From a virus (Duplodnaviria > Caudoviricetes): DNA of 53,614 nucleotides. This document shows, one piece after another, positions 8,195-53,399 of the stretch; position 1 is the first letter of the stretch, and every line of letters begins with the position of its first letter. The notes beneath the pieces are model-generated. The model saw only the letters and a program-made list of their open reading frames with translations, did no database searches and was not told the origin of the DNA. The translations under genes were made by a program, and so were the position numbers. The DNA lies in IMG/VR virus record IMGVR_UViG_3300034120_000351, positions 1 to 53,614 of that record, one strand, 5' to 3'.

Positions 8195-8415
8195 CTGAGA
8201 ACGCACCTGTGTTGGCGGGCATAAAGTGGTTCACGAGCGGTAAGGGTCTCGTGGGCGTAGCAGCGGTGCGCATTGAGACCGGCGACATCAAGTTCTACAT
8301 CGCCCCCGCTGATGGTTTCAACGAGGTGATCGACTCTAATTTGATCATGTCACACGGAGCGCCTTTCCCCGAGGACGCCGGTTACGCATTATTTGTAAAG
8401 GAAGAGTTAGCATGA
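8191..8415 (+). CDS. Hypothetical protein
   Basis: AAGGAG RBS; coupled. Confidence 0.7.
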   Translation: MTENAPVLAGIKWFTSGKGLVGVAAVRIETGDIKFYIAPADGFNEVIDSNLIMSHGAPFPEDAGYALFVKEELA

Positions 8416-9368
8416 ACACCGTATTTCCCGACCTGTCGCTTGACCGCAACGTCGTCAAGTGGGAGCAGCACCTTGGCACTCAGACGCCGTGGGAGAATCA
8501 CAAGGGCTTGTGGTTCAAGCGTGAGGATTACTTTGCGCCGCTCGGCTATAGCGGTCCCAACGGCTCTAAGATGCGCCAGCTGATTTGGTACGTCAACAAG
8601 TTCCGTCAAGGTAAGACCCACATCGTGACCGGCGCTAGCATTCAGTCCCCTCAGCTGAGCATGAGCGCTATCGTGGGTGCGCACTACGGCTTGCGCGCTC
8701 GGCAGATCGTCTATAGCAAACCTGAGACTGTGTTGCGTCATGAGAACCCTCGCATTGCCTACGGCTTTGATGCTGAGTTTGAGTACGCTTCTGGTCCGTA
8801 CAACCCTATCCTGCAGCGCAAGGTTGTTGACCTGACGCAACCTACCTCGCTCGTCGTAGAGTACGGCATTACCGTGCCACATGACCGCTACCCTGAGGAC
8901 GACGTGCGTAAGTTTCACGAGGTCGGCGCTCATCAGACAGCTAACATCCCGCCCGAAGTCAAGCGCCTCATCGCCCCTGCTGGGTCGTGTAACTCGCTGA
9001 CGAGCATTATGCTCGGCTTGAGCCGTGACTCGCACAATATTGAGGAACTGTTCACGATCGGCATCGGTCCCGACAAGCGCGGCTGGATGCGTGCTCGGTT
9101 AGCCTACATCGGCATTGACATTGACAAGCTGCCGTTCAAGTGGAAGCACTTTAGCCTGCACGACAGCGGCTACAGCAAGTACAGCGATCACTTCACCGGT
9201 GAGAATTTTGACGGCATCCGCTTTCACCCGACCTACGAGGCTAAGATGTGGCGCTGGTTGACACACAACAACCAGTTAGATTATGATGACCATACCGCCT
9301 TCTGGATTGTGGGCAGCGCCCCTGACACGAAGATTGTTGAACCCTTTTACACTAGGAAGTTTTCATGA
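8412..9368 (+). CDS. PLP-dependent enzyme (fold type II, ACC deaminase/D-cysteine desulfhydrase-like); probable DNA base-modification decarboxylase
   Basis: WFKREDY...GPNGSKMRQ PLP-lysine motif, PAGSCNS phosphate loop and HPTYEAK; adjacent to thymidine-modification genes. Confidence 0.8.
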   Translation: MNTVFPDLSLDRNVVKWEQHLGTQTPWENHKGLWFKREDYFAPLGYSGPNGSKMRQLIWYVNKFRQGKTHIVTGASIQSPQLSMSAIVGAHYGLRARQIVYSKPETVLRHENPRIAYGFDAEFEYASGPYNPILQRKVVDLTQPTSLVVEYGITVPHDRYPEDDVRKFHEVGAHQTANIPPEVKRLIAPAGSCNSLTSIMLGLSRDSHNIEELFTIGIGPDKRGWMRARLAYIGIDIDKLPFKWKHFSLHDSGYSKYSDHFTGENFDGIRFHPTYEAKMWRWLTHNNQLDYDDHTAFWIVGSAPDTKIVEPFYTRKFS

Positions 9369-9553
9369 GACAACAACAAGCATTCCCAAGTGAAGAATAT
9401 TACGGCATGAATTTGCGTGATTACTTCGCGGCTCAGGCTATGCAATCATTTACAGGAGACGTTGGCTGGAAATCTGACCAGAAATGGTTTGAAGAAATTG
9501 CAGAAGGCGCTTACAAGGTTGCAGACGCAATGATGAAAGCGAGGGAAGCATGA
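9365..9553 (+). CDS. Small hypothetical phage protein (LRDYFAAQAM...AYKVADAMMKARE family)
   Basis: Recognisable widespread small phage protein pattern; coupled on both sides. Confidence 0.75.
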   Translation: MRQQQAFPSEEYYGMNLRDYFAAQAMQSFTGDVGWKSDQKWFEEIAEGAYKVADAMMKAREA

Positions 9554-10551
9554 CCGATTATCGTCTACCTGAGAACCGCGCCGCGTATTTCTCGGCGCTG
9601 TACAAGATGAACCTTGAGCATGGTGTTATGCCAGGACTGGTTTATCTGTACATGCCTGAGTTAGCCCGCCGCTGCGAATGGGACGCTGAGCAGAAGCTCT
9701 GGTTCGCCTTTCTGAACGGCTTGACGCAGAACCCGATCACCTCGTTACGCTTGCTCAGCCGACTGCCGAGCGTGCCTCCTGCGGGCGCTCAGTTGACGCA
9801 GTTCAATGATTGGTTCAATGCTGAGTGGGATACGCTTCAGTTTGACACCGACCGCCGCTACCAGAAGCGCGACACCCTTGAAGCCATCAAGACTTACGCT
9901 AAGTTGGTCGAGGAGTTCGGCTCTCAGGAGGCAATGCTGACCGGTAAGCCTTACTCCGAGCTTTGGGATCTTGTGCGTAACCGCTACTACAGCTTCGGTC
10001 GTCTGTCATCGTTCAGCTACCTCGAGTATGTCTACCTGAACGGCTTCGGCGCTGACTGCGATGATCTGATGTTTAGCGACAAGTCGGGCAGCAAGTCACA
10101 CCGCAACGGAATGCTGTTTTTAATCGGCAGAGACGAGCTGGTGTGGGACAAGCGCCTGCCCAACGGACAAGACGGCAGCTACCCTAAGTTCAACCTGATG
10201 TGCGGCTTCCTCGCTGCGGAGGCTGACAAGTACATTGATAGCTTCAACGCCGCCAATCCTGGCATCGCTCACGCGGGTCGCTTCACTATGGAGTCAAACC
10301 TTTGCACGTTCAAGAATCATTTCTTCGGTCGTCGCTACCCAGGAGTTTACGCGGACATGGCGTGGGAGCGGATTGAGTGGGCTGAGGCGCGTGACCAAGG
10401 CGAGTACACCGAGGTGTTCAAGGACATGCGCTCACAGCTCTTGCCTGACTGGTTACGCGCTGAGTGTGAGACCGAGCCGTTGACCGTAAAACAGAAAGCC
10501 GCCGTGTTCCCTGAGACCGGTTCACCCTATAGAGCGGAGTACTTTTTATGA
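9550..10551 (+). CDS. Amino acid:DNA transferase (aGPT-Pplase2/ADDT family)
   Basis: FDTDRRY, FGRLSSFSYLEY, SHRNG and ESNLCTFK...RRYPGVYAD motifs plus gene context. Confidence 0.8.
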   Translation: MTDYRLPENRAAYFSALYKMNLEHGVMPGLVYLYMPELARRCEWDAEQKLWFAFLNGLTQNPITSLRLLSRLPSVPPAGAQLTQFNDWFNAEWDTLQFDTDRRYQKRDTLEAIKTYAKLVEEFGSQEAMLTGKPYSELWDLVRNRYYSFGRLSSFSYLEYVYLNGFGADCDDLMFSDKSGSKSHRNGMLFLIGRDELVWDKRLPNGQDGSYPKFNLMCGFLAAEADKYIDSFNAANPGIAHAGRFTMESNLCTFKNHFFGRRYPGVYADMAWERIEWAEARDQGEYTEVFKDMRSQLLPDWLRAECETEPLTVKQKAAVFPETGSPYRAEYFL

Positions 10552-11126
10552 AGCATATCATCCTGCGAATTGCCGGCACGTTCGGCTCGGGCAAGACCAC
10601 CGCGATGCGCGGCTTCTTCAACTACCCGCACACAGTTTTGATGAGCGGTAAAAAGATCGCCGGTTATCAAGTCGACGCCAGCTCTGCCGGAATCAGCGAG
10701 CCGATCTTTGTGGTTGGCAAGTATGACAACACGTGCGGCGGCACAGACGCCATCAAGACACAGGCTGAGATTGCCGAGAAGATCCTGAAAGCACACCCCC
10801 ATGGCCATGTGTTATACGAGGGCGCTTTAGTGTCTGCGAGCGGACTCGCCGGTCAGGTGACGCAAGCCATTCACCCTACCGGCTGCGATGTGTACGCCTT
10901 TCTTGACACTCCGCAAGACCTCTGCGTTGAGCGGGTTAAGGGGCGTCGCCTCGCCGCCGGCAACGACAAAGAGTTTGACCCGAAGAACCTGATTGACAAG
11001 TTTGAGTCGGTTGTCAACTGCTACAAAAACCTGCGCAAAGAAGGCACGTACGACGTGCGTCTGATTGACCACACAGACCCGCACCCCGCGCTAGTAGAAA
11101 TCATAAAGGAGTATGAAAATGCGTGA
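10548..11126 (+). CDS. P-loop nucleotide kinase, probable 5-hmdU DNA kinase catalytic part
   Basis: Walker A GTFGSGKTT, VGKY...CGGTD and LYEG motifs; context. Confidence 0.78.
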   Translation: MKHIILRIAGTFGSGKTTAMRGFFNYPHTVLMSGKKIAGYQVDASSAGISEPIFVVGKYDNTCGGTDAIKTQAEIAEKILKAHPHGHVLYEGALVSASGLAGQVTQAIHPTGCDVYAFLDTPQDLCVERVKGRRLAAGNDKEFDPKNLIDKFESVVNCYKNLRKEGTYDVRLIDHTDPHPALVEIIKEYENA

Positions 11127-12039
11127 CAATTGCCCTTACCCTATGCCGACGCCGGAGACAGTTTGCTCGATGGCGGGTCTGCTTTACTTCATCTGGGAGC
11201 GGGAGGCTATCCGCATCGCTCGTGAGAACGGTCACAGCGCTCCGTGGACTAAAGACCCTGTACTCGCTAAGTACAAGTTCACCAACATCCACCGCTGCGA
11301 TGATCGCGTTTCGGTTTGGGTGATTGATCGGTTGATTGAGCCAGCGACCGCTCGAGGCGATGAGCACTTGTGGTTCACGCTGTTGATCGCCCGCCTGATC
11401 AACTGGCCGCCCACGCTACAGGCGCTGCTTGACAAGGGGGTCATCCCCTGCGCTCCTGAAAACTTTGATGCTGACTTGTTTGAGCACACGCTTGAGCGTA
11501 TCAAGAAAGACGGCAACAAGGTTTACTCCGGCGCGTACATGCTCTACCCGACTAAGATGGAGCCAGGAGGCAACAAGTCTAAGGCGGTGGCAAAGTACAT
11601 CATCGGCAGCGCGGTTGAGAACGCTGACAATATTAGCGCGGCGCTGTGGAACGATGGCGGGATGATGTCTATTGAGCGGTTCGTAGCTGAACTGAGCAAG
11701 TGCTTCGGCATCAGCACCTTTATTGCCGGACAGGTCGCCGCTGACTTGACGTACACCGGCATGGACGTTGAAGACTTGTTCACTTACGCGCCTATCGGTC
11801 CTGGTAGCTCGCGTGGGCTAAACTATTTGCTCGGCAAGCAGCCGTTCGCCACGTGGAAGCAGAAAGAATTCAATGCCGAGCTGAGCAACATCTTCAGCGA
11901 GATCGTTGATAAATTAGAAATCGTAGACATGACGCTGCATGATGTGCAGAACTGCATGTGCGAGTTCAGCAAGTACTGCCGCGCCGTACTCGGCGAGGGT
12001 AAACCTAAAACAACCTACCAACCAGAAACGGAGTTCTAA
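11113..12039 (+). CDS. 5-hmdU DNA kinase helical-domain protein (aGPT-Pplase1 family)
   Basis: ERE.IR...PWTKDPVLAKYKFTNIHR.DDR, RLINWP, GAYM, F.AGQVAADL, GPGSSRGL and QNCMCEFSKY motifs. Confidence 0.85.
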   Translation: MKMRDNCPYPMPTPETVCSMAGLLYFIWEREAIRIARENGHSAPWTKDPVLAKYKFTNIHRCDDRVSVWVIDRLIEPATARGDEHLWFTLLIARLINWPPTLQALLDKGVIPCAPENFDADLFEHTLERIKKDGNKVYSGAYMLYPTKMEPGGNKSKAVAKYIIGSAVENADNISAALWNDGGMMSIERFVAELSKCFGISTFIAGQVAADLTYTGMDVEDLFTYAPIGPGSSRGLNYLLGKQPFATWKQKEFNAELSNIFSEIVDKLEIVDMTLHDVQNCMCEFSKYCRAVLGEGKPKTTYQPETEF

Positions 12040-12040
12040 A

Positions 12041-13078
12041 ATGGAGTTAGTCGTACGTAACGTCAATCAGGCTTTCAGTGAGATATTCTGGAAGCTCAAA
12101 GTGCTCAACCTTCAACCTGAGCAGACCCGCAATGGTCCCGCTATCGTGTACCCTGAGATGGTGACCACGGTCTACAAGTGCCCGTCTGAGCGCGTGCTGT
12201 TTCACAAGGGTCGTGATGCTAACCCGATCTTTCACCTCATGGAGTCGATCTGGATGCTGGCAGGGCGTAATGACGTTGCGTTCCTACAGCAGTTCAACAA
12301 GCGCATGGTCGAGTTCAGCGACGACGGCAAGACATTTAACGCCGCCTATGGTCACCGCTGGCGCAAGCACTTCGGTCATGACCAGCTTGACGAGGTCATT
12401 AGAACCCTGCGCCGCGACCCTAACAGCCGTCAGGCGGTTGTTCAGATCTGGGACGACGCTGATTTGAACAAGAAGACCAAGGACAAGGCGTGCAACATGC
12501 AGGTCATCTTTGACACTCGCGGCGGTCGTCTGAACATGACGGTGATCAACCGGTCTAACGATATCTGGTGGGGTGCGTACGGCGCTAACGCTGTGCATTT
12601 CAGTTTCCTGCAGGAGTTTGTAGCCGCTGCGATAGCGCACAGAATCGGCGTGTACCGTCAGGTGAGTAATAATTTCCACTTATACACAGAACTTTATAAC
12701 GCGAACAAATACCTCGTGACCCCGCCGGACGCTAACGACTATGACCATTACTCTAACGGCTCAGTGCGCCCCCTCCCGATCATGCTGAACGGCGAGTACA
12801 AACTGTTCCTAGCGGAGTGTGAGATGTTCTGCCACGACCCGTACAATGAGCGCATTCATTATGCTAACCCTTTCTTTGAGCACATCGCACGCCCCATGGC
12901 TATGATCAGTCGCGTACGCAAGATTCACGCAGGTGACGGTCGTAGCTATGCCGCTAAGATCCGCGCCGAGGACTGGCGTCGCGCAGCGTTTGATTGGATT
13001 GACCGCCGTGACCAAGCACGCAAAATCAAAGAGGAAGATGACGAGATAAATGAGCTGCGGAAGGCTGAGAAAAAATAA
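12041..13078 (+). CDS. Thymidylate synthase-fold enzyme, probable dUMP hydroxymethylase (start revised to MELVV)
   Basis: SRQAV, catalytic Cys in DKACN, RSNDIWWGAYGAN with the dUMP-specifying Asn, and NFHLY; context favours hydroxymethylase over ThyA. Confidence 0.82.
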   Translation: MELVVRNVNQAFSEIFWKLKVLNLQPEQTRNGPAIVYPEMVTTVYKCPSERVLFHKGRDANPIFHLMESIWMLAGRNDVAFLQQFNKRMVEFSDDGKTFNAAYGHRWRKHFGHDQLDEVIRTLRRDPNSRQAVVQIWDDADLNKKTKDKACNMQVIFDTRGGRLNMTVINRSNDIWWGAYGANAVHFSFLQEFVAAAIAHRIGVYRQVSNNFHLYTELYNANKYLVTPPDANDYDHYSNGSVRPLPIMLNGEYKLFLAECEMFCHDPYNERIHYANPFFEHIARPMAMISRVRKIHAGDGRSYAAKIRAEDWRRAAFDWIDRRDQARKIKEEDDEINELRKAEKK

Positions 13079-13141: not shown

Positions 13142-13630
13142 GTGAAACATACCCTCGATTTTATTCTGGCTGGAAGCGAAGTGAAGCGCTATCACACAGT
13201 CACCACGCTCGTGTCTGAGACCGTCGGTCATCATTCACACGGCGTTGCTATGCTGTGCTTGATGTTTGACCCGATGGCGAGCCGTCAACTGCTAATGGCT
13301 GCGCTGTTCCATGATTTGGCTGAACACCAAACCGGCGACATCCCCTCCCCTGCTAAGCGTGAGTTCGGCATCGGCGGCAAAGTTGACGAATTAGAGTTGC
13401 GCCTTATGAGCGCTGCCGGAATCGTCACACCGCACCTCTCACCTGAAGACAAGAGAACTCTCAAGCTCGCCGACGTAGCACAGGGTGCGCTGTTTTGCGC
13501 TCGGGAGATCTCACTCGGCAACAAACGCATGCGCCGCGTATTTGACCGCTACATCAGCTACGCGGAAGAGCTGATTCTGGTCGGTCGCGAGCGCGAAATT
13601 TTCAACATGATCAAGGAATACGCAGCATGA
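13142..13630 (+). CDS. HD-domain deoxynucleotide hydrolase (YfbR-like)
   Basis: VKRYH, ETVGHHS, LFHDLAE.QTGDIPSP and LKLAD motifs; GTG start after the leader repeat. Confidence 0.85.
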   Translation: MKHTLDFILAGSEVKRYHTVTTLVSETVGHHSHGVAMLCLMFDPMASRQLLMAALFHDLAEHQTGDIPSPAKREFGIGGKVDELELRLMSAAGIVTPHLSPEDKRTLKLADVAQGALFCAREISLGNKRMRRVFDRYISYAEELILVGREREIFNMIKEYAA

Positions 13631-13899
13631 GCGCGGCAAATCAAAAACAGATCGGTGGTAACCACTACAAGCACGGCGGCGAGGAACACTGGGACCGCGT
13701 CAATCGCTTGCGCCTGAATTACTTTCAAGCGGCGGCTACAAAGTACATTGAGCGTTGCTACCTGAAGGGTAACACTGTTCAAGACCTGCAGAAAGCCGTT
13801 CACTTCCTTGAGAAGCTGATTGAGATCGAGCAGCGTAAGGCTGATGCGGCTTGTGGTGACGGTAGCGAGCCTACCAGCGGCTATGTCAATCAAGACTGA
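13627..13899 (+). CDS. DUF3310 protein (T7 gp1.7-like, possible nucleotide kinase)
   Basis: QIGGNHYK...KYIER...KG...QDLQKAVHFL motif. Confidence 0.8.
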   Translation: MSAANQKQIGGNHYKHGGEEHWDRVNRLRLNYFQAAATKYIERCYLKGNTVQDLQKAVHFLEKLIEIEQRKADAACGDGSEPTSGYVNQD

Positions 13900-13900
13900 C

Positions 13901-15742
13901 ATGGGTACTTGGGTGTTTGATACTGAAACTCTGCCTAACCGGACTCTGTTCTGCGCAAAGAACATTGAGACCGGCGAGTGGTTTGACTTGTGGCGTCATT
14001 CTGACGACGCCCCTGCTCGCCTCACTCGGTTTGTGCAGCAGTCAGACAGCACGTTCATCGGCTTCAACAGCAAGTCGTTTGACAACGCGGTTGTGGCGGC
14101 GTTCTGCCTCGGTAGGACTGAGATTGAGATCAAGCGGATTGCTGATGACATCATCACGAACCGCCTGTCGCCTTGGAACGCGATGCGTAAGCACAACCTG
14201 CGTGACATCATCATTGATGACATTGACTTGATTGAGGTCGCTCCCTCGTTTGTAGGTCTGAAAGCCTACGGCGCTCGCATGCATATGCCTAAGTTGCAGG
14301 ACATGCCGATCGCTCACGACGAGATGATCGCCCCTGATCAAGAGCCGATGCTACTTGAGTATTGCCACAATGACGTTGACACAACTGCTGAGCTGTTGAA
14401 TCAACTCGAAGGCGAGCTTTTGCTGCGCGTTGAGATGAGCCGCCGGTACGGAGCTGACATGCGTAGCAAGTCTGACTCACAAATGGCGGAACAGGCGTAC
14501 ATCACCAGCATGGGTCTCAAACGTCAAGAGAATGAGATCCCTAAGACGGTCAGATATACGCCTCCGGCATTCCTGAAGTTTATGGATGCCGAGCTACAGG
14601 GTCTGCTTGATCGTGTCTCTGAGCACGTGTTCAATATGAACCCTGCCACCGGACACGTCCAGCTTCCAGACTTTCTCGGGCAGCGGACGATTAAATTTGG
14701 CACCGGCGAGTACCAGCTCGGCGTGGGCGGCATTCACAGCGTGCATGATAAACAGGTGTGCCACATCGCCGGTGATGATCACATGTGCGACCTCGACGCG
14801 GCTTCGTTCTACCCGAGTATCATTCTTGAGTGCGGGTTTGTGCCCGCCGCGCTCGGCAAGCGCTTCGTTGAGGAGTACCGCAAGATTTACGAGCGCCGCC
14901 TCGAGGCAAAGCGCAACGGCGACAAGATCACTGACGCGACGCTGAAGATTTCGCTGAACGGCACGTTCGGCAAGCTCGCCAGCCGTTACTCGGTGTTGTA
15001 CTCGCCGGACTTGATGTTGGCGGTGACGCTGACTGGGCAGTTCACCCTGCTCATGTTGATTGAGTGGCTTGAGCGGGCAGGGGCTTTGACCTTGTCAGCT
15101 AATACCGACGGCATCGCGATCAAGTTCACAAAGGAACAGAAGGAGCTAGTTGAGAAGGTTGTCAATAAGTTTAGTGAGGTGTCCGGTTTCGTGTTTGAGT
15201 ACACGCCGTATCGCGCCCTCGCTATGAAGGACGTAAACAATTACATTGCGGTCAAGCCTGACCGGAAGCTGAAAGTCAAGGGCATCTATGCGCCGCTCTC
15301 TCTTAAGAAAAACCCAACGGCTCAGGTATCGTCAGATGCTGTCGGCGCGTGGTTGGCAAGCGGTACTCCGTTCGAAGAGACGATTAAGTCTGCTCCGTTT
15401 ACGCACTTCATTAGCGCAAGGAATGTCACTGGCGGTGGCCAGCAAGCTGGGGTTTACCTTGGCAAAGTCGTACGGTGGTATCAATCAACGGACACTGGCG
15501 GCGAGCCTATCAAGTATGCTACGAATGGCAACAAAGTCCCTAAGACCGAAGGCGCTAAGGCGTGCATGACCGTGCTTGACAAGGTCGCTCACCCTGCTGA
15601 TCTCGACTATGAATGGTATAACAAAGAGGCGATAAAAATCGCCATAGCGGTTGGCTGCTCGCAGTACCTCACCCCTGAGCAACTCGCTTTAGTGGCACCA
15701 CCACCTAAGAAAACTAGGAAAGTTAAAAATGGAACACGGTAA
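13901..15742 (+). CDS. Family B DNA polymerase with 3'-5' exonuclease (start revised to MGTWVFDTE)
   Basis: ExoI FDTE, ExoII FNSKSFD, ExoIII YCHND; polymerase motifs DLDAASFYPSII, KISLNGTFGKL and ANTDGI. Confidence 0.92.
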   Translation: MGTWVFDTETLPNRTLFCAKNIETGEWFDLWRHSDDAPARLTRFVQQSDSTFIGFNSKSFDNAVVAAFCLGRTEIEIKRIADDIITNRLSPWNAMRKHNLRDIIIDDIDLIEVAPSFVGLKAYGARMHMPKLQDMPIAHDEMIAPDQEPMLLEYCHNDVDTTAELLNQLEGELLLRVEMSRRYGADMRSKSDSQMAEQAYITSMGLKRQENEIPKTVRYTPPAFLKFMDAELQGLLDRVSEHVFNMNPATGHVQLPDFLGQRTIKFGTGEYQLGVGGIHSVHDKQVCHIAGDDHMCDLDAASFYPSIILECGFVPAALGKRFVEEYRKIYERRLEAKRNGDKITDATLKISLNGTFGKLASRYSVLYSPDLMLAVTLTGQFTLLMLIEWLERAGALTLSANTDGIAIKFTKEQKELVEKVVNKFSEVSGFVFEYTPYRALAMKDVNNYIAVKPDRKLKVKGIYAPLSLKKNPTAQVSSDAVGAWLASGTPFEETIKSAPFTHFISARNVTGGGQQAGVYLGKVVRWYQSTDTGGEPIKYATNGNKVPKTEGAKACMTVLDKVAHPADLDYEWYNKEAIKIAIAVGCSQYLTPEQLALVAPPPKKTRKVKNGTR

Positions 15743-32000: not shown

Positions 32001-32477
32001 TCATGAAAGGAACACAGCGCGTTCGTCAATCCGGCGCTTCTGAAGCCCCTTCAAGACTTTACCCCCCGCCATGCAATACTTCAAGAGTTCCTCAGCAGCA
32101 CCCTCTTTATCACCGCGTAGCAGCTTCTGACGCAACGTCGAACGCTGGAGTGTTCCCAGACCGACATTAAAAGCAAAAGACACAAGACCGTCAAACATCC
32201 CTTGTGTAAGAGGTACAGGACAGAAGCGTTCCACTCCACGCTCAAACCTGTTAAGATCGCTTCTGAGAATCCCATCTACTTCTTCTTTGGAAAATTGGCG
32301 GTTATCTTCTGCACGAAGCGCGTAAGCGCCTCTTTGATCGATTGGTAACTTGCCTTGATCTGGGTAAAGAACATGTCCAACTCCTATTGTCCACAGCTTT
32401 GCTGGGCACTGGTAAGGTTTAAACCGAACACCCTCATGGTGTTTGATCATCTCAATCGTTTTAGACGAGACGTTCAT
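32001..32477 (-). CDS. Endolysin, GH24 lysozyme
   Basis: HEG...Y.CPA..WTIGVGH catalytic region, FDGLVSFAFNVG and GLQKRR.DE motifs. Confidence 0.93.
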   Translation of the reverse strand: MNVSSKTIEMIKHHEGVRFKPYQCPAKLWTIGVGHVLYPDQGKLPIDQRGAYALRAEDNRQFSKEEVDGILRSDLNRFERGVERFCPVPLTQGMFDGLVSFAFNVGLGTLQRSTLRQKLLRGDKEGAAEELLKYCMAGGKVLKGLQKRRIDERAVFLS

Positions 32478-43525: not shown

Positions 43526-44440
43526 TTAAACGCCAGCAGTACCGAACACGCCACGTGGGTCAGTCCAACCCAATGTGTAACGCTCAGTAGCCTTGTAGCG
43601 CATAGAGTCAGTCTCGAAGTCGCCTTCCATAGACTTCTCCAAGCCACGACGCATCAACAACTTCAAGCCTTCAGGCGCATCGGTCTGCACCCACCATGCG
43701 GTAGATGAAGTGATACGTGACAAGTTAGCTTGGCCATCAGCCAGCAAGCCCATGGACTTAACTGGGTTGATGTCGTTGTCGGCTGTGCCGGTGCGCAAGA
43801 CGCTCTTCAAGAGGACTTCTGCTTGGAACACGTTAGAAGGACCGGAAACGATCTTCTTAGGTGTCAAACGGATACGCTTACCGTTGTTGTCAACGGCGTT
43901 ACGGATCTGAATCAGCAACTGCTCAAGAGAGGTTTGTGACAAGTTAGCGGGGGTGCTCAGCTGATTGCTGAACGTGCCGTTAACGATTGGGTGGTTAGTT
44001 GCAACCAACGCCACACCGTCACCACCAACATACGCGCCGTTGAAGGCACGATTCAAGATGTTAGCTGCGAGGGTTTCCTTAGTCTCGATCAAAGACTGCG
44101 CCAAGTGCTTGGCGTAAGTCTGACCGATACGGATGTGGTCGCCGTCTTCCACCAAGACTTTGGTCAAGCTGAATGCCAGACCGTAGACTTTGTAGAGGTA
44201 GCGTTGCAAGAACAACACGCCACCAGACTGGTAAGAAACAGCCATACCGTCGGGCAGTTCAGGCGCTGCGCCAAAACCATAAAGAACAGGTTCTTCATGG
44301 TAGTTGCGAGGGATGCCTTTTTGCTCGCGGAAGACCATCTTCCACTCGTCAGCACGTTGGTCATAAACACCATCGAACACTTCGTTGAGGATAGGCTCAA
44401 CAACGGACCGGAAGTCCGTACTACGCATTGGGGTAGCCAT
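43526..44440 (-). CDS. Major capsid protein (HK97 fold)
   Basis: 304 aa; TKE..AANILNRAF...GGDGVAL...HP and GDFETD..RYKA.ERY..GWTDPRG motifs; strong RBS and terminator. Confidence 0.88.
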   Translation of the reverse strand: MATPMRSTDFRSVVEPILNEVFDGVYDQRADEWKMVFREQKGIPRNYHEEPVLYGFGAAPELPDGMAVSYQSGGVLFLQRYLYKVYGLAFSLTKVLVEDGDHIRIGQTYAKHLAQSLIETKETLAANILNRAFNGAYVGGDGVALVATNHPIVNGTFSNQLSTPANLSQTSLEQLLIQIRNAVDNNGKRIRLTPKKIVSGPSNVFQAEVLLKSVLRTGTADNDINPVKSMGLLADGQANLSRITSSTAWWVQTDAPEGLKLLMRRGLEKSMEGDFETDSMRYKATERYTLGWTDPRGVFGTAGV

Positions 44441-47406: not shown

Positions 47407-49899
47407 TCAAGGGTTAGGGTTAATTCCGGTTCCGGTGCTCACTGCGACTCGCTCGCCCGTCGCCATCTCGGCAGCGGCTAACAGTTTCGCGGTGTCGTTG
47501 TCAGCCGTGTTCATGCGCTCGCGAGTCTCAAGGTCGGCGGCGGTGCGCTGGTTTTCGGCTTCTTGTCTCATCTGCTCAGCTTGCATCTTCTCAAAGTTGG
47601 CTTGCTGCTGGGCTTGTAACTTAGCGGCTTCAAGTTGCTGTTGTGACTGCATCTTCTGCTGTTCGATTTGCAACTTAGCTTGATCAATCTGACCGCGCTG
47701 CTGGGCGATCTGACCTTGCACCTGAGCGTTGAGCTGGGCAACCTCCATGCTACGGTCAGGCGGCATAGGTGGCTGGGGCTTGAACTGCTGAGCGGCTTGA
47801 TCCAGCTGTGCCAGCTCTTGACCGAAGTTACCGAGCTGTTGCTCGATGAACTTCTGCACTTCCAAGATGACTTTGACCTGCTCTTCGGCTTCTTCCTGAA
47901 TCAACTCCTCACGCTGTGCCTTGTCAACGGCGTTGTGCGCTTCGACGAGGTAGTAATTGAGCAGGTGATCACGCAAGTGCGTAGCGATCGGGTACAGAAA
48001 CGTCTTCGCAATGGCAGGATTTGACCCGAAAAGCGGAGATTTCAAGAAAGGTATGTGCGTCATCAAGTGCGCCATGTGATCTTGCGACGGGAGCACGTAA
48101 ATTGGGCGTCCCATAGCGGCGGCGACGTTCTCGCTCACCGGATCCATGTCCTCGCTTCCTGGCAACGGCTGCAGCACCTCATTCGCAGGCACTTTCATGT
48201 TGCGGAGGAACATTTCCTCTACTTTTCGCACATCATACATCTGCGGCATGGCTTGCGCACGCTGCATAATTGCCTGAGTTTGCGCAAAACGCTGGGTTTC
48301 GCTGAAAATTGCGGGGTCGCTGACAGGAATAACGTCAAGCGGACCATCAAAATCAGACGGATCGATGTCAAGACCCGCCGCTTGTGCCTCAATGTCCTCA
48401 ACAGTCAGGTATGCGCTGTTGATGCGGTGCAAAATCTTGAAGCAACGCGCCATCGAGCCATGCAAACGGCTGTGAATTGAGCTGAACACCACCATGCCCT
48501 GCTCAATGAGCGCCATGGTTGTGCCTACAGGCTGGTTAGGGTTCTGGTCAGAGAGCTTCTCAAAGGACGTTTGCACCACGCCCTTGCCTGCGTCTACGAG
48601 GAAGCCGAGAAGTTGGAACAGAGTTGGGCTGGGACCGTTGAACGGCAGTGGCATCGCCAGCTTGCGCACGTCATCAATCAGCGCTCCACCCTCCATCTCA
48701 ACGACTTCTGTCGGCTGGACGTTGAGGGTTTGCCCTCCTGGACCGCCTTTGAGCTTGAGCAGCGTGGGGACGTTCTGAATGTGAGCCGAGTCAAGCAGGG
48801 CGCGGAGTGCGCCGGTGGCTGCACCGCTCAGACCGCCAATCATGTGCGTCAGACCGATAGGGTACGCACCGCGCCAAGGCACGAATGGGAACTCCACAAT
48901 CCAATCAAGCTCAAGCTGACGGTCGTCATCAGGCTCCCAGTTACGGTACAAGCCCAAGCCGAGGTTGGTCGTCTTGTCAATGCTCAGAATGTACGGCTCG
49001 GGACCATCACCGAAGTCGAGGTATGTGTAAACTTCAAAGATCGTGCGTAAGCCGTCTTCGTTGTAGCTCAGGTCTTTGCGTCCCTCAATCTTGTCGTTAG
49101 CCTGAGTGGACTTGCTGAACTCGGGATCTTCCGGCATACCCAAGTCAACGTCGCGGTACATGCCTGACTTGACACGGCGCTCGTATTCAAACTTCGTAAT
49201 GTACTGCACGTGCGTCTTACGCTCGGCGGTGTAGAAGTTGGTCGCCGCGAACGGCAGGTAGACGTCATCAATAGCGATGAACTCTGCGCAGGGGCGGCGG
49301 TGGAGCGGGTTCCACATGAACTTCATGTACTGACCGCCGCCGAGCGGGAGCTGCGTGCTCAACTGCTCAAGCTCGCCACGGAACTCCACCATCTGCTCAG
49401 TCGTCTGCCAGTTCATGAAGTCCGCTTTACGCTGGGCTTTCTGAACCTTGGACTTGTCTTTCTCGCCGAGGATCTTGCTCTTTACGGGACCATTGGGCGG
49501 GAAGACCTCCTTCATGAAGCGGGCAGAGAAGTCCACGCACGCCTCGACGAGCATTGGGTGCACGACCTTGTTTGCGCCGGTGAACTGAGCACCTCCAGGA
49601 GCATCATCACCTAAGCCGGTGCGACGCAAACCCTCCTCGTACTGCTTGTCGCGCTTCTCACGAGCCTCTTTGTCGTTGCCGATCTTTTCTACGAGGTCGC
49701 TGATGGCGGTCTTGAGCAGGTCTTGATCGACCTCCTCGACGATATTGGCAAAGTGGGCGAGCTTTGTCGCGTGGTCGGTGTCGTTCTTCTCACGCAGGAT
49801 TGCGCCACCGTCCTCAGTGTCCTCGACCTCGTTGTCAACGTCCTCAAGCTGAATCGTTTCGCCTTCAGACATTTCGTCTTCTAATCTTTCAGTAGCCAT
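47407..49899 (-). CDS. Portal protein
   Basis: 830 aa; VHPMLVEACVDF, PPNGPVK, GAYPIGL.HMIGGL and PVGTTMALIEQG motifs; Gln-rich coiled C-terminal barrel typical of podovirus portals. Confidence 0.85.
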   Translation of the reverse strand: MATERLEDEMSEGETIQLEDVDNEVEDTEDGGAILREKNDTDHATKLAHFANIVEEVDQDLLKTAISDLVEKIGNDKEAREKRDKQYEEGLRRTGLGDDAPGGAQFTGANKVVHPMLVEACVDFSARFMKEVFPPNGPVKSKILGEKDKSKVQKAQRKADFMNWQTTEQMVEFRGELEQLSTQLPLGGGQYMKFMWNPLHRRPCAEFIAIDDVYLPFAATNFYTAERKTHVQYITKFEYERRVKSGMYRDVDLGMPEDPEFSKSTQANDKIEGRKDLSYNEDGLRTIFEVYTYLDFGDGPEPYILSIDKTTNLGLGLYRNWEPDDDRQLELDWIVEFPFVPWRGAYPIGLTHMIGGLSGAATGALRALLDSAHIQNVPTLLKLKGGPGGQTLNVQPTEVVEMEGGALIDDVRKLAMPLPFNGPSPTLFQLLGFLVDAGKGVVQTSFEKLSDQNPNQPVGTTMALIEQGMVVFSSIHSRLHGSMARCFKILHRINSAYLTVEDIEAQAAGLDIDPSDFDGPLDVIPVSDPAIFSETQRFAQTQAIMQRAQAMPQMYDVRKVEEMFLRNMKVPANEVLQPLPGSEDMDPVSENVAAAMGRPIYVLPSQDHMAHLMTHIPFLKSPLFGSNPAIAKTFLYPIATHLRDHLLNYYLVEAHNAVDKAQREELIQEEAEEQVKVILEVQKFIEQQLGNFGQELAQLDQAAQQFKPQPPMPPDRSMEVAQLNAQVQGQIAQQRGQIDQAKLQIEQQKMQSQQQLEAAKLQAQQQANFEKMQAEQMRQEAENQRTAADLETRERMNTADNDTAKLLAAAEMATGERVAVSTGTGINPNP

Positions 49900-49907
49900 T
49901 GCTTACC

Positions 49908-52900
49908 TCACATAAACTGGTTGAGTATTGCGTCCACGCGACTCGGGTCGTACGCTGTGACGCTGCCGCCTTCGGCGTAGTTACGCGGGGCGCTGATGCT
50001 GTTGATGATCTCATCGACTTGGTTCGGGTCGTAAGACACTGAGCCACCCTCGGCAAAACCTTTGCGCGTCAAGAACTCAACGGCTAAAGGGTTCATCGCC
50101 TTGTACACGTCTTTGTTGGACACCTGCGGTGCGATGTTCCTACCGCTGAGTTGCAATTCACCTCTGCCCAATCCTTGCGCTTTGCGCAGGTCAAGCATCG
50201 CCAGCGGCGCTAGGTTCTCAGCGAGATCACCCATAGTGCCACCGGCTTCAAAGTATTGGCGGAACCGAGGGTCATCCATGACCGACTTGAACGTCCCTTT
50301 GCTTCCGGCTCGCTGGAGTTCGTACACGGCGCTGTTCAGCGCTCGGCGGTCAAACACCTTGCTCGGATTGTCAGTAGCAAAGAACGAGTAAGACGTCGGG
50401 ACGCGCTCGGCTAAGTTAGCAGGAGACGCGATAATCGTACGCAACTCCCTGTTCTGTTTTCCTGGGAAGTACTCATTAGCGGCGAACCTGAAGTCTCCCT
50501 CGCTCGGTGCGACGTCAAACGCAGCTTGTGCTGCGCGGGGATGCGTGTGAAAATCTACGATAGGTCTGTCGCCCTTGACAGCGCGTAAGATGTCAAGCTG
50601 GTTCGGGTTTACAGAGTCCCAGTCCCCAGACATGATCGTGCCTGCGGGTCCTCGGTCACTAGAGCCGACGACGGAATGCTCAATGTCTTTTGAAAAAGCC
50701 CTGCCTAACGCTTCCCTGATCGTCTTAGCCTGAGCGGGGGCTTCCCGTGCGACCAGCTTCATCAACGAGGTTATGTTTCCGGCTTGAGCTTCTGCTGGCG
50801 CACCGGAGATGACTGCGGCGGCGAGGGTCTTGCCGACCTTGCCAAACGGGAGCAACATAGAAGCCAAGTCAACTGCGTCCTGCGGCATGAGGCTCGCGTT
50901 CAGCTTGTCGCCGATGTCAGACTTCTGGCTACGCTTACCGGCGTTGGGATAGATGCCAAACGCGGCTTGCTCATCTGCGTCAACCGAACCACCCTCCTTG
51001 TAACCTTGCTTACCCGCGTCAGGGTTGACAAATGCGCGGAACTGGCTCTCACTCATGAAGCGCGGTGCGTCAGGATTGAAGTTCGTGGCGTAGTTGAACT
51101 TGTCCATCCGCTCATGCGGCAGGTCGTAATCCAAAACATCCGCAAGCGCTTTCTGCACGCCAGACGGGTTACGCAGATCTACGATATCGTAGTGGTGCAA
51201 ATCTTTGACCGCACCCCACTCACCAGCGTTTAAAAACTTGAGCACCGACTCGGTAATCTTCTCTTTATACGCAGGGTCGCGCTTTGTGTACTCGCGGGCG
51301 CGTTCACTGCTGAAGGCGTTCTCAACCGGCTTCAACTCGGTGATGTCGAGCGGAGTTACACCTCTTTTAGGTAACATGCGCTCGGCTTGCTCATACACGC
51401 TGTTGAGAATGTCACGAGCGGCTTTAGGTAGCTCGCTCTCAGCGCCCGCCCCCAGCGTCATCGCTAAGTCTTCCGCATCTCCGAAGCCTCGGTCCGACAG
51501 AATCTGCCCCGCGTTGCGGTAGATCTGATCAGCGATGGCGTCTTCTTCGTCAAGCACATCACCTAGCTCTAAACCTTTGTTCTTAGATTTGGTGATCATC
51601 GCCTGAGCATGAGGGCGACCCTCAGCGTCAATCAGAGTTGTCAAGCTGTTTTCACCTGAGCCATAACGCTTGGCGAGACCCTCTCCCTGCGTACACCAAC
51701 CGGCTTGTCGACCGAGCGTTGTGCAGAGCTTCATAGCCGAATCGTCAACAGTCGCGGGAATGTCAATCCACTTCATTCCTGGCTCTTTGACGAATGACAG
51801 CTGCGCGTCAGGGATCTCAAGTTTCGGCGTGGCAGTCAGGTTACCCATCATGTCTTCTAGCTCTGCGTCAGATGCCGATTTGGCTCGCCACTTGTTGACT
51901 GCGTCAACCTTCTCCACCATCTGTTTAACCGATAGTTTGTCAAGCTGTTGAGGCGTCAAGCGTAACGCGGCGGGCAAGCCTGACTCGGGGTCAAGCATGT
52001 TCTGAATCTCATCCGCCATGTGACCGAACCCGAGGTTCTCATTGAGATCCATCGTGTTGTCAATCTTGTAAATCAGCGTCTCTGGGTCGAGCTTCTCAAT
52101 CCACGGATTACGCTCTGCTCGTTGCACAGCCCCCTTAGCGCCTTCCATGCTGGGTTTTTCCCGCGCCATACGAAACTGCTCTTGATAAGCTCCGGCAGGG
52201 CTTGACGTGATCTCCGTGTCCGCGAGGTTCTCCCACAACTCGGCTTTGCGAGTGTTGGCTTCCATATCCTCGGGATAACCCGCGTCGGCGTGCTTTTTAG
52301 CGGCGAACCCTTCCTCAGGGTAGCCCGCCTTGCGGCGCATAGTCGCCGTTTCCTCAGGCAACCATGCACCGAGTTCTTCAGCAGCGTTACCAGGAATGTG
52401 CGAATAGCCTTCCTCGTGTGCGAGACGGATTGGGTCGTCCGGTGTGCCCATCTCGTTACGGATGTACTTTTCGAGCTTGCTGTCAAGCCACTTGTTGACC
52501 GCGCCCCTCTCCTCGCCGACGAGCTTGTTCAAGACGTCAGGTCGGTTTTCCCGCAACCATGGGACAGGGTATTGGTAAACACCTTCGTCAATCATCTTTG
52601 ACCAAAGGTCTTCACCGGCGGCTTGGTTGATCAGATCTCCGCTGATGACTTCAGGATTGCGCTTTAAAGGGTACACCGACATTTTCACGCTATCTCTTGA
52701 ACCGAGCGTCGGTGCCCAATTACCACCCTTAGGCTTCACGGCATACGACTTCAGGGGTGAGGTTACGTTCTGAACAATGTCGCGGGCAACGTAAGGCGCG
52801 GTCTGCACGAGGTTAGTACCCACGCGCTTTGCGAGGCTCGTCAACGGCGGCGCGACCAACATCGCAGCTTCCGCAGTGTCATCGGGCAGCAGGGGGACGT

Positions 52901-53399
52901 TAGCCTTGTTGACGTTAGTGATCGGCTGTCCGTAGCTCAAGCGCTCAGTGGTGCGAGCGAGCGCTGGCACGCCGAGGAACTCCATCGTCCCCTGCATCTG
53001 CTGCGTGCGCTGAGGCGAGTAAGTCTGCTTGAGGAAGTTGGCAATCGCACCCAGTGCTGAGTTCTGCGGCTGTACGCGGACTGAGTCGCCCTTAGCGTAG
53101 TTGGTCCTGACGAACCCGCCGTCCGCCCACTTCACCTTGTTCGCCCAATACGCTGGGCTGCTCGGACCCTTGGCGATGTTCTTTGCGTGACGTGACTTGA
53201 ACGAGGCTCGCTTCGCCTTCATGCGGTCGGACTCGCCCTCCTTAGGCTTACCCGCCGTGCTAGCGCCCTGCTCGCCGAAGCGAATGATCTTCTCCTTGCC
53301 GTCCACCTTCGTCTTGACGATGTGGCTCTTAGTCGGATGATTAGGCGTGCGGCGCGGTTGATTGAGCGGCAAGCTGTCCTTGTCAACGCGGTCTGTCAT
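49908..53399 (-). CDS. Large multidomain (polyvalent-type) protein with C-terminal JAB/JAMM metallopeptidase-like domain
   Basis: 1163 aa; basic N-terminal module, central GWCT...LIDAEGRPH (PcfJ-like) region, E...HTHP-x11-SEGD motif; modules separated by [WYF]xxGG. Confidence 0.65.
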   Translation of the reverse strand: MTDRVDKDSLPLNQPRRTPNHPTKSHIVKTKVDGKEKIIRFGEQGASTAGKPKEGESDRMKAKRASFKSRHAKNIAKGPSSPAYWANKVKWADGGFVRTNYAKGDSVRVQPQNSALGAIANFLKQTYSPQRTQQMQGTMEFLGVPALARTTERLSYGQPITNVNKANVPLLPDDTAEAAMLVAPPLTSLAKRVGTNLVQTAPYVARDIVQNVTSPLKSYAVKPKGGNWAPTLGSRDSVKMSVYPLKRNPEVISGDLINQAAGEDLWSKMIDEGVYQYPVPWLRENRPDVLNKLVGEERGAVNKWLDSKLEKYIRNEMGTPDDPIRLAHEEGYSHIPGNAAEELGAWLPEETATMRRKAGYPEEGFAAKKHADAGYPEDMEANTRKAELWENLADTEITSSPAGAYQEQFRMAREKPSMEGAKGAVQRAERNPWIEKLDPETLIYKIDNTMDLNENLGFGHMADEIQNMLDPESGLPAALRLTPQQLDKLSVKQMVEKVDAVNKWRAKSASDAELEDMMGNLTATPKLEIPDAQLSFVKEPGMKWIDIPATVDDSAMKLCTTLGRQAGWCTQGEGLAKRYGSGENSLTTLIDAEGRPHAQAMITKSKNKGLELGDVLDEEDAIADQIYRNAGQILSDRGFGDAEDLAMTLGAGAESELPKAARDILNSVYEQAERMLPKRGVTPLDITELKPVENAFSSERAREYTKRDPAYKEKITESVLKFLNAGEWGAVKDLHHYDIVDLRNPSGVQKALADVLDYDLPHERMDKFNYATNFNPDAPRFMSESQFRAFVNPDAGKQGYKEGGSVDADEQAAFGIYPNAGKRSQKSDIGDKLNASLMPQDAVDLASMLLPFGKVGKTLAAAVISGAPAEAQAGNITSLMKLVAREAPAQAKTIREALGRAFSKDIEHSVVGSSDRGPAGTIMSGDWDSVNPNQLDILRAVKGDRPIVDFHTHPRAAQAAFDVAPSEGDFRFAANEYFPGKQNRELRTIIASPANLAERVPTSYSFFATDNPSKVFDRRALNSAVYELQRAGSKGTFKSVMDDPRFRQYFEAGGTMGDLAENLAPLAMLDLRKAQGLGRGELQLSGRNIAPQVSNKDVYKAMNPLAVEFLTRKGFAEGGSVSYDPNQVDEIINSISAPRNYAEGGSVTAYDPSRVDAILNQFM

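Follow-up and report, generated by a model that had tools for sequence, protein, structure and literature searches.

A compact operon predicted to hypermodify thymine in the DNA of an uncultured podovirus-like phage

We analyzed a virus record of 53,614 bp from IMG/VR (IMGVR_UViG_3300034120_000351; Duplodnaviria, Caudoviricetes), taken at its full length and referred to here as the window, and found that five plus-strand genes at 8412-13078 encode the enzyme classes used by Salmonella phage ViI (Vi01) to hypermodify its thymine: a pyridoxal 5'-phosphate (PLP) enzyme, an ADDT transferase, a P-loop kinase, an aGPT-Pplase1 protein, and an enzyme with the thymidylate synthase (TS) fold. We estimate a probability of roughly 0.78 that this operon makes the phage DNA carry a hypermodified thymine by a ViI-like route. 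In this route, 5-hydroxymethyldeoxyuridine (5-hmdU) would be phosphorylated to 5-phosphomethyldeoxyuridine (5-PmdU), joined to an amino acid through the side chain of the latter, and decarboxylated. This is the best reading because the PLP enzyme is homologous to ViI gp226, the following genes form a block colinear with known systems, the synteny is conserved, and other tailoring enzymes are lacking. The chemical steps, the donor, and the extent of substitution are inferred from these observations together with catalytic residues and predicted folds. An earlier note on this DNA had proposed a thymidine-hypermodification cluster of the kind found in phages ViI, M6, and PaMx11, and our analysis supported it: all five genes lie where the note had placed them, on the plus strand, with only the start of the TS-fold gene revised.

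8412..9368, plus strand: fold-type-II PLP enzyme, homologue of the ViI gp226 decarboxylase (318 aa; predicted Schiff-base lysine, K53)
9550..10551, plus strand: ADDT / aGPT-Pplase2 donor:DNA transferase (333 aa; PF18724; predicted catalytic C252; metal pair E248-S249; pocket T253, K255, R262, Y263, D269)
10548..11126, plus strand: P-loop kinase, probable 5-hmdU DNA kinase (5-HMUDK) (192 aa; Walker A motif GTFGSGKT)
11113..12039, plus strand: aGPT-Pplase1 / HMUDK_hel helical protein (308 aa; PF18723)
12041..13078, plus strand: TS-fold enzyme, probable dUMP hydroxymethylase (345 aa; C151, N183)

Enzymes of the operon and their characterized homologues

The PLP enzyme was found to match phage ViI orf00226 (gp226, YP_004327553; E = 6e-48, 39% identity over residues 2-237), which is listed as the PLP-dependent decarboxylase of O-seryl-thymidine in Table 1 of Lee et al. 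(2021). Lysine K53 was aligned with K92 of the ViI enzyme and with K36 of YuA gp11, the counterpart of M6 gp52, and was invariant in 34/34 aligned relatives; ViI K92 and M6 gp52 K36 have been proposed as the internal-aldimine lysines (Lee et al. 2021). An AlphaFold2 (AF2) model of the enzyme (mean predicted confidence, pLDDT, 91.8) was matched by Foldseek to the D-cysteine desulfhydrase 4d8t and the ACC-deaminase homologue 1j0a (probability 1.00, TM-score about 0.62-0.66), and 1j0a is also the template reported for gp226. A tblastn search with the enzyme retrieved 348 phage records at 29-34% identity, in which the most frequent host names were Salmonella, Vibrio, Klebsiella, Escherichia, and Dickeya; the records listed were nearly all 150-163 kb, like ViI-like phages. 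The identity to gp226 and the position of the gene by ADDT suggested that the PLP enzyme may be a decarboxylase of an amino-acid:thymidine conjugate in DNA.

The earlier note had proposed a profile search against the ADDT, HMUDK, and PLP families as a check, and this was borne out in part. The ADDT protein scored 66.2 bits against PF18724 (cut-off 26.2, E = 4.6e-18) and the PLP enzyme matched phrog_3650 (E = 7e-74); the PLP enzyme had no match in a Pfam scan, and the kinase fell 0.6 bit under its cut-off. The ADDT protein is 33% identical to the serine:DNA transferase gp247 of ViI (E = 2e-30). When searched with phmmer against the open reading frames (ORFs) of seven reference loci, it matched Mycobacterium phage Lolalove (2e-54), Glutamicibacter phage Montesquieu (4e-51), and ViI gp247 (4e-31), and did not match YuA, M6, PaMx11, or PhiW-14. 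Only 211 relatives at E <= 1e-3 were found among 1.84 billion cluster representatives. Several representatives with the ADDT domain were fusions of 567-1278 aa (P0249, P0250, P0252, P0254, P0260, P0268, P0269, P0272, and P0279).

The next three genes resembled those of the Pseudomonas siphoviruses. The kinase is 37% identical to PaMx11 gp49 (E = 5.5e-18) and 31% identical to M6 gp54 and YuA gp13 (E = 4e-9); it also matched a ViI locus (E = 2e-7), carries the P-loop GTFGSGKT, and sits ahead of Pplase1 as in M6 and PaMx11. In the work of Lee et al. (2021), M6 gp54 added one phosphate to 5-hmdU in DNA and pyrophosphate was not seen. The earlier note had taken 5-hmdU to be pyrophosphorylated on DNA, and this does not agree with that work, which reports only the mono-phosphorylated 5-PmdU. 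Pplase1 scored 146.1 bits against HMUDK_hel (PF18723; cut-off 25, E = 1.8e-42) and is 34% identical to M6 gp55 (E = 2e-32), with further matches to PaMx11 gp50, PhiW-14, and ViI.

The TS-fold gene most likely starts at the ATG at 12041 rather than at 11939, as the matches in related loci begin at the equivalent of 12041. Its product scored 80.4 bits against the Pfam family TS (PF00303; E = 1.5e-22). The predicted catalytic Cys C151 and N183, the Asn of the uracil-specifying type, both counted from the alignment, were aligned with what we take to be C146 and N177 of E. coli TS; where the latter stands, the cytosine-specific MilA carries Asp. Over its whole sequence, the protein shares 44-47% identity with the homologues annotated "thymidylate synthase" in M6 (gp58), YuA, and PaMx11 (gp51) (E = 1e-82 to 1e-88), and over residues 39-217 it shares 45% with the ViI homologue. 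Among solved structures, its best relative was the CMP hydroxymethylase MilA (E = 3e-23), and the best TS reached only 5e-12. It is thus probably a dUMP hydroxymethylase that would yield 5-hydroxymethyl-dUMP.

The order of these genes is also shared with the Pseudomonas phages. We searched the window with the M6 and PaMx11 ORFs of at least 90 aa and found that the kinase, Pplase1, TS, HD, and DUF3310-like genes were all paired with the order kept. The block is colinear with M6 gp54-60 and PaMx11 gp49-53, at 26-54% identity across the blocks. M6 gp51, gp52, and gp53 and PaMx11 gp46, gp47, and gp48 had no partner in the window. The operon thus consists of the M6/PaMx11 core with a different donor and tailoring head. 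The genes surrounding and completing the block are as follows.

9365..9553, plus strand: 62-aa ORF, phrog_2201, between the PLP and ADDT genes
13142..13630, plus strand: HD-domain YfbR-like 5'-deoxynucleotidase, syntenic with M6 gp59 and PaMx11 gp52
13627..13899, plus strand: DUF3310 protein (sub-threshold Pfam match; phrog_5839), syntenic with the ORF that follows the HD gene in M6 and PaMx11
13820..15742, plus strand: DNA polymerase, phrog_1252 (mechanical TTG start of the ORF, overlapping the DUF3310 gene)

Overlaps of 4-14 bp were found at four of the six junctions (9365/9368, 9550/9553, 10548/10551, and 11113/11126), and the Pplase1 and TS-fold genes abut at 12039/12041. The 62-aa ORF, present in only 2 of 80 related loci, is probably not part of the pathway. 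The true start of the polymerase is probably further downstream than 13820.

We then considered other tailoring enzymes, which the earlier note had reported to be missing, and this was confirmed. Six-frame searches of the window for Radical_SAM, DAO, and Acetyltransf_1 found nothing, and their positive controls were detected in 14/14 genomes. DAO was taken as our stand-in for the PaMx11 flavoenzyme gp47, which was also searched directly with no match in the window. In 12 near-complete relatives, 10 of them rated 100% complete, we found radical SAM in 0/12, DAO in 0/12, and a single sub-threshold GNAT match in 1/12. According to Lee et al. (2021), an N-linked glycine without the radical SAM isomerase offers a PLP enzyme no free amine. 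The lack of such an isomerase therefore makes a side-chain-linked amino acid the coherent substrate for the PLP enzyme. The earlier note had also called the cluster complete; the five genes are indeed present, but no dTTPase/dUTPase, dCMP deaminase, or hmdUMP kinase was recognized among the window genes.

Conservation of the operon in an uncultured lineage

Searching with the ADDT protein, we found 855 homologues at E <= 1e-5; the best 120 listed were 68-98% identical, and many lay on contigs of 52-60 kb. A megablast search of the cluster against 50,697 phage records gave no match. Synteny was counted among 80 IMG/VR loci, with the kinase, Pplase1, and TS genes scored where the locus reaches 3.6 kb downstream and the PLP gene where it reaches 1.3 kb upstream. 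The kinase, Pplase1, and TS genes followed ADDT in this order in 67/69 loci (the exceptions being L069 and L075), and the HD gene followed TS in 70/73. The PLP gene was located upstream of ADDT within 3.5 kb in 53/67 loci; in 36 of these the two genes adjoin, and in the other 17 an insert of 0.5-3 kb lies between them. This gene arrangement is far beyond chance.

In the remaining 14 of the 67 loci the PLP gene was not upstream, and in three of them (L012, L013, and L080) it was elsewhere in the locus or inverted. Whole records were searched for five of the 14. Two relatives rated 100% complete, G001 (60,781 bp, L039) and G002 (57,497 bp, L060), have no PLP gene anywhere and retain ADDT, kinase, Pplase1, and TS. 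In a third, G004 (L045), the PLP gene is reduced to a 22-residue C-terminal remnant that is 73% identical. The other two were a contig of 102 kb with the PLP gene elsewhere, in a lineage otherwise of 52-60 kb, and a fragment with no PLP gene. By their gene content, the relatives without the PLP gene should carry the undecarboxylated adduct.

The kinase was found to occur in two types. Neighboring genes may be 78-98% identical to those of the window, yet the kinase is either about 91-100% or ~48% identical. Across the loci, kinase identity was below 55% in 29 and at least 55% in 47, the comparison including L003-L011 and L076. The pattern resembles an allelic exchange confined to the kinase gene.

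The 17 loci with inserts between the PLP gene and ADDT (for example L028:5029-7775, L033:6857-7795, L053:1885-2631, and L063:3424-4493) were also examined. Among seven insert ORFs scanned, two were DHH/DHHA1 phosphoesterase-like, one was weakly similar to the pyrophosphohydrolase MazG, and four had no family; none of the seven was a radical SAM enzyme, flavoenzyme, or acetyltransferase. The inserts also encode a protein of 248-255 aa that looks like a DNA methyltransferase by eye and has no Pfam match.

The amino acid donor and the likely product

To place the ADDT enzyme among the characterized transferases, we compared its sequence and predicted structure with theirs. A phmmer search of PDB sequences returned nothing useful, and the solved Pplase2 structures were reached only by profile and fold search. 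A profile of 53 ADDT sequences gave matches spanning the E-x-x-L-C-x-x-K motif to two solved enzymes: 25qc, an amino acid:DNA transferase (E = 0.0045), and 8z2m, the glycinyltransferase of PaMx11 (E = 0.45). The AF2 model of ADDT (pLDDT 96.8) has the all-helical, HhH-containing fold of PUGT and YuA Pplase2; its top three PDB matches were 8z2m/8z2n (PaMx11 gp46/PUGT; probability 1.00, TM-score 0.52-0.61), and the next match had a probability of 0.09. The match to PUGT gave TM-scores of 0.54/0.61. C252 was aligned with C247 of PaMx11 gp46, described as its catalytic cysteine, and E248-S249 with the metal-binding pair E243-T244 of the PaMx11 enzyme, Ser replacing Thr in 31/53 members of the subfamily. 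Conservation was high at C252 (52/53), E248 (52/53), and Y263 (53/53).

The earlier note had also proposed a tree with the characterized transferases. We built a quick maximum-likelihood tree of 64 rows, comprising the window protein, 52 near-full-length sequences that we picked among the 150 representatives listed, and 11 reference or related sequences. The window and ViI enzymes share a 60-row group from which the glycine and putrescine enzymes are excluded. Within this group the window protein belongs to a clade of its own (10 rows, support 100, long stem), and the ViI enzyme falls on a different branch (5 rows, support 100). The window clade lies within a 40-row group (support 96) alongside the actinobacteriophage enzymes.

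The residues of the donor pocket also differ from those of ViI. Li et al. (2026) describe donor preference as set by the residue after the catalytic Cys and a Tyr or Asp 10-11 residues further on, with K/Y for glycine and G/D for diamines. At these positions the window enzyme has T/Y and the ViI enzyme W/Y, and across the 53 subfamily members the residue after Cys is T in 17, A in 8, C in 7, S in 6, W in 4, N in 2, and others in 9. In YuA, the carboxylate of glycine is bound by K159 and K248; these two correspond to S156 and T253 in the window enzyme, and K159 corresponds to N189 in ViI. Judged from a remote alignment, the window pocket would favor a carboxylate-bearing donor over a diamine, given its conserved Tyr and the positive charges of K255, R261, and R262. 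Since the clade is separate from the ViI serine clade and the residue after Cys is different, the donor cannot be assigned by orthology.

The earlier note had named a ViI-like decarboxylated seryl product as the simplest outcome. This was a fair first guess, and 5-(2-aminoethoxy)methyl-dU (5-NeOmdU), made from serine, stays the single most likely product, but with the transferase outside the ViI clade we hold it only tentatively, at somewhat less than even odds. Nearly as likely is a different decarboxylated amino-acid adduct made by the same pathway, in which ADDT would link a donor other than serine by its side chain, the candidates being threonine, homoserine, cysteine, and basic amino acids, and decarboxylation would yield an undescribed thymine derivative. 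The separate, long-stemmed clade, the substitution of T for the W of ViI and the K of the glycine enzymes at a position variable in the subfamily, and the Ser at the YuA K159 position, which is Asn in ViI, all point to such a donor. However, the nearest characterized relative of the partner PLP enzyme acts on O-seryl-thymidine, serine is so far the sole known side-chain-linked donor, and the pocket mapping depends on remote sequence alignment. It is also plausible, though less likely than not, that this widespread ADDT clade attaches an amino acid other than serine or glycine via the side chain, followed by gp226-like decarboxylation to an undescribed thymine derivative. If true, an undescribed base would exist in a podovirus-like lineage of which no cluster-bearing phage has been isolated, and the relatives without the PLP gene would keep the carboxylated form, so that the lineage would have two chemically different types of DNA.

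For the ViI-like route that we prefer, the following sequence of steps can be proposed. Before replication, the TS-fold enzyme would convert dUMP to 5-hydroxymethyl-dUMP, the HD 5'-nucleotidase would help to bias the dNMP pool against dTMP, and the phage polymerase would accept 5-hmdUTP and insert 5-hmdU instead of T. Once the DNA has been replicated, the P-loop kinase would add one phosphate to the hydroxymethyl group to give 5-PmdU. Cys252 of ADDT would then attack C6, the phosphate would be expelled with a metal held by E248/S249, and a carboxylate-bearing donor would be added, most likely an amino acid joined via its side chain with the alpha-amine left free. Finally, the gp226-like PLP enzyme, with its internal aldimine on K53, would form a Schiff base with this free amine and remove CO2.

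Several observations weigh against this route. In both its clade and its donor-pocket residues, above all T for W after the catalytic Cys, the ADDT enzyme departs from the ViI-type serine:DNA transferases. The kinase scored 26.4 bits against HMUDK_HMUD1 (PF18748), where the cut-off is 27, and a phmmer search of PDB sequences found no significant relative of it. For the TS-fold protein, sequence alone gives no strict split between a dUMP hydroxymethylase and a thymidylate synthase. The absence of the PLP gene from two 100%-complete relatives means that decarboxylation is dispensable in the lineage. Lastly, no terminase was recognized in the record, its length falls 3-6 kb below that of its complete relatives, and a few genes may be missing from it.

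We also weighed whether the PLP enzyme might act otherwise than as an adduct decarboxylase, by beta-elimination, beta-replacement, or deamination, or by making the donor from a free metabolite. Its closest solved folds, D-cysteine desulfhydrase and ACC deaminase, are not decarboxylases, its identity to ViI gp226 is only 39% with the long insert of gp226 absent, and the gene is missing in the two complete relatives. We nevertheless regard this as improbable, as ViI gp226 and M6 gp52 share the fold and are reported by Lee et al. (2021) as proven decarboxylases on DNA, the gene lies directly upstream of ADDT in 36/67 loci and within 3.5 kb in 53/67, and the basic pocket of ADDT would favor a carboxylate donor over a ready-made amine. 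It is less probable still that the TS-fold enzyme is an ordinary thymidylate synthase among nucleotide-metabolism or repair genes with no action on DNA bases, as its Pfam and PHROG labels and a kinase that is under the Pfam cut-off and touches a thymidylate-kinase PHROG might suggest. No function apart from 5-hmdU in DNA is known for Pplase1, a gp226-like PLP enzyme, or an ADDT with an intact catalytic Cys. Moreover, a hydroxymethylase matches the TS-fold protein better than any TS in the PDB does, and the protein is closely related to the homologues of M6, YuA, and PaMx11, of which M6 and PaMx11 are described as having bases derived from 5-hmdU in their DNA.

Relation to known systems and virion type

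Among the loci compared, the operon is the most compact ViI-type gene set, with one kinase, Pplase1, Pplase2, a PLP enzyme, and the probable hydroxymethylase. In phage ViI, the 5-NeOmdU pathway comprises the kinases gp67 and gp243, the Pplase1 gp160, the serine:DNA transferase gp247, and the PLP decarboxylase gp226. The window resembles it in having the same enzyme classes, no radical SAM, and a homologous PLP enzyme with the same Lys, and the sole characterized ADDT that phmmer finds from the window protein is that of ViI. Unlike the window, which has a compact operon and one kinase, ViI has its genes scattered over a 157-kb myovirus genome and has two kinases; the window ADDT lies in another clade with T for W after Cys, and its PLP enzyme lacks the gp226 insert.

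With the Pseudomonas siphoviruses M6/YuA (5-NedU) and PaMx11 (5-AcNmdU), the window shares the colinear block of 5-HMUDK, Pplase1, TS, HD, and DUF3310-like genes. However, the window has nothing equivalent to their glycine transferases, radical SAM isomerase, M6-type PLP enzyme, FAD lyase, or acetyltransferase, and their virion type and polymerase are different.

The nearest cultured ADDT homologues were found in Glutamicibacter phage Montesquieu and Mycobacterium Coopervirus phages, at 37% identity and sharing the L-C-T motif. Montesquieu further encodes Pplase1, a TS/hydroxymethylase, a PLP enzyme resembling ACC deaminase, and a kinase. Unlike in the window, these phages have actinobacterial hosts, and in Coopervirus a "hydroxylase" replaces the TS homologue, with no PLP gene in the stretch examined. 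In Lolalove (MT818419, 785-3462; L096), Coopervirus genes 2-4 at the left genome end encode this hydroxylase, the ADDT homologue, and a small kinase, the latter two being annotated in Coopervirus as "nucleotide pyrophosphohydrolase" and "adenylate kinase". These three genes are probably an unrecognized thymidine-modification module starting from a hydroxylase rather than a TS homologue.

The major capsid protein (MCP; Phage_capsid_4) of the window, encoded at 43526-44440 on the minus strand, is 82% identical and the portal 58% identical to those of Caulobacter phage RW and its three near-identical isolates. The first description of RW is in a paper whose title concerns the podovirus genus Rauchvirus. 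Against Roseobacter phages CRP-901 and CRP-902, both proteins show 37-45% identity. In comparison with Pelagibacter phages, the portal shares 32-33% identity with HTVC023P and HTVC027P, and the MCP shares 40% with HTVC023P; the published descriptions of these two phages give them as podoviruses by electron microscopy. When 40 window proteins were scanned against PHROGs, no tape-measure, tail-tube, or sheath family was found, and direct terminal repeats were detected in 4/12 relatives. This kinship and the absent tail families, judged from genes alone, make a podovirus-like virion likely. Caulobacter phage RW, the nearest isolate by capsid, was considered as an experimental stand-in and ruled out, as it has no ADDT.

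The earlier note had set the podovirus-like virion module apart from the characterized examples, which it gave as myo- or siphoviruses. The capsid and portal do belong to a type verified by electron microscopy as podoviral, but to call such genes unknown in podoviruses would be an overstatement: text of the 2022 mSystems paper already reports TS and aGPT-Pplase1 as partner auxiliary metabolic genes next to the polymerase of HTVC023P-type podoviral pelagiphages, in some cases along with a 5'-deoxynucleotidase, and relates them to the M6/PaMx11 versions. These pelagiphages are of a related capsid and portal lineage, and their TS, Pplase1, and 5'-deoxynucleotidase genes adjoin the polymerase as in the window. 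Compared by description only, that text names TS, Pplase1, the nucleotidase, and a glucosyltransferase, and names no Pplase2, kinase, or PLP enzyme. Lee et al. (2021) mined IMG/VR v2 and GOV2 with 5-HMUDK queries and describe combinatorial clusters of kinase, Pplase2, PLP, and other genes near dUMP hydroxymethylase. In the literature searched, which covered main texts, no product was assigned to the window ADDT clade and no full gene set was described in a podovirus.

The operon represents a known kind of anti-restriction system and reveals no new principle. The combination of an M6/PaMx11 core with a ViI-like tailoring head is a clear case of the modular shuffling proposed by Lee et al. (2021). 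Thymidine hypermodifications block many restriction enzymes, and a new donor chemistry would mean a new DNA base and new DNA-acting enzymes. The five genes lend themselves to in vitro reconstitution, by which the ADDT clade could be assigned a donor, with the relatives that have or lack the PLP gene as a natural comparison.

The record is classed as linear, with a CheckV completeness of 98%, and is organized in two divergent arms. The plus-strand arm, at ~5.7-19.7 kb, holds replication and nucleotide-metabolism genes, with the HD 5'-deoxynucleotidase, the DUF3310 protein, and the DNA polymerase following the TS-fold gene in that order, and the minus-strand arm, at 19.7-53.4 kb, is the long virion block; a primase/polymerase and a helicase are located at 1.6-5.3 kb on the minus strand. 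No terminase was recognized among the 40 proteins scanned. Two candidates, a 1163-aa ORF ahead of the portal and a 678-aa ORF at the end of the virion block, were rejected. Together with the shortness of the record relative to complete relatives, this suggested that the packaging genes may lie past the contig end. The 1163-aa ORF (49908-53399, minus strand) has a PcfJ-like middle part and a 91-residue N-terminal domain that is 55-75% identical to small roseophage and cyanophage proteins (phrog_7595). An endolysin gene (32001-32477, minus strand; phrog_7, E = 8e-47) was found midway through the virion block, flanked by genes for tail-fibre-like and structural proteins. The 82% match of the window MCP in RW is a "hypothetical protein" (MK929790, 49833-50744). 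The capsid gene of RW is given as unidentified in the 2024 Riverwalk cluster paper, and by this homology 49833-50744 is very likely that gene.

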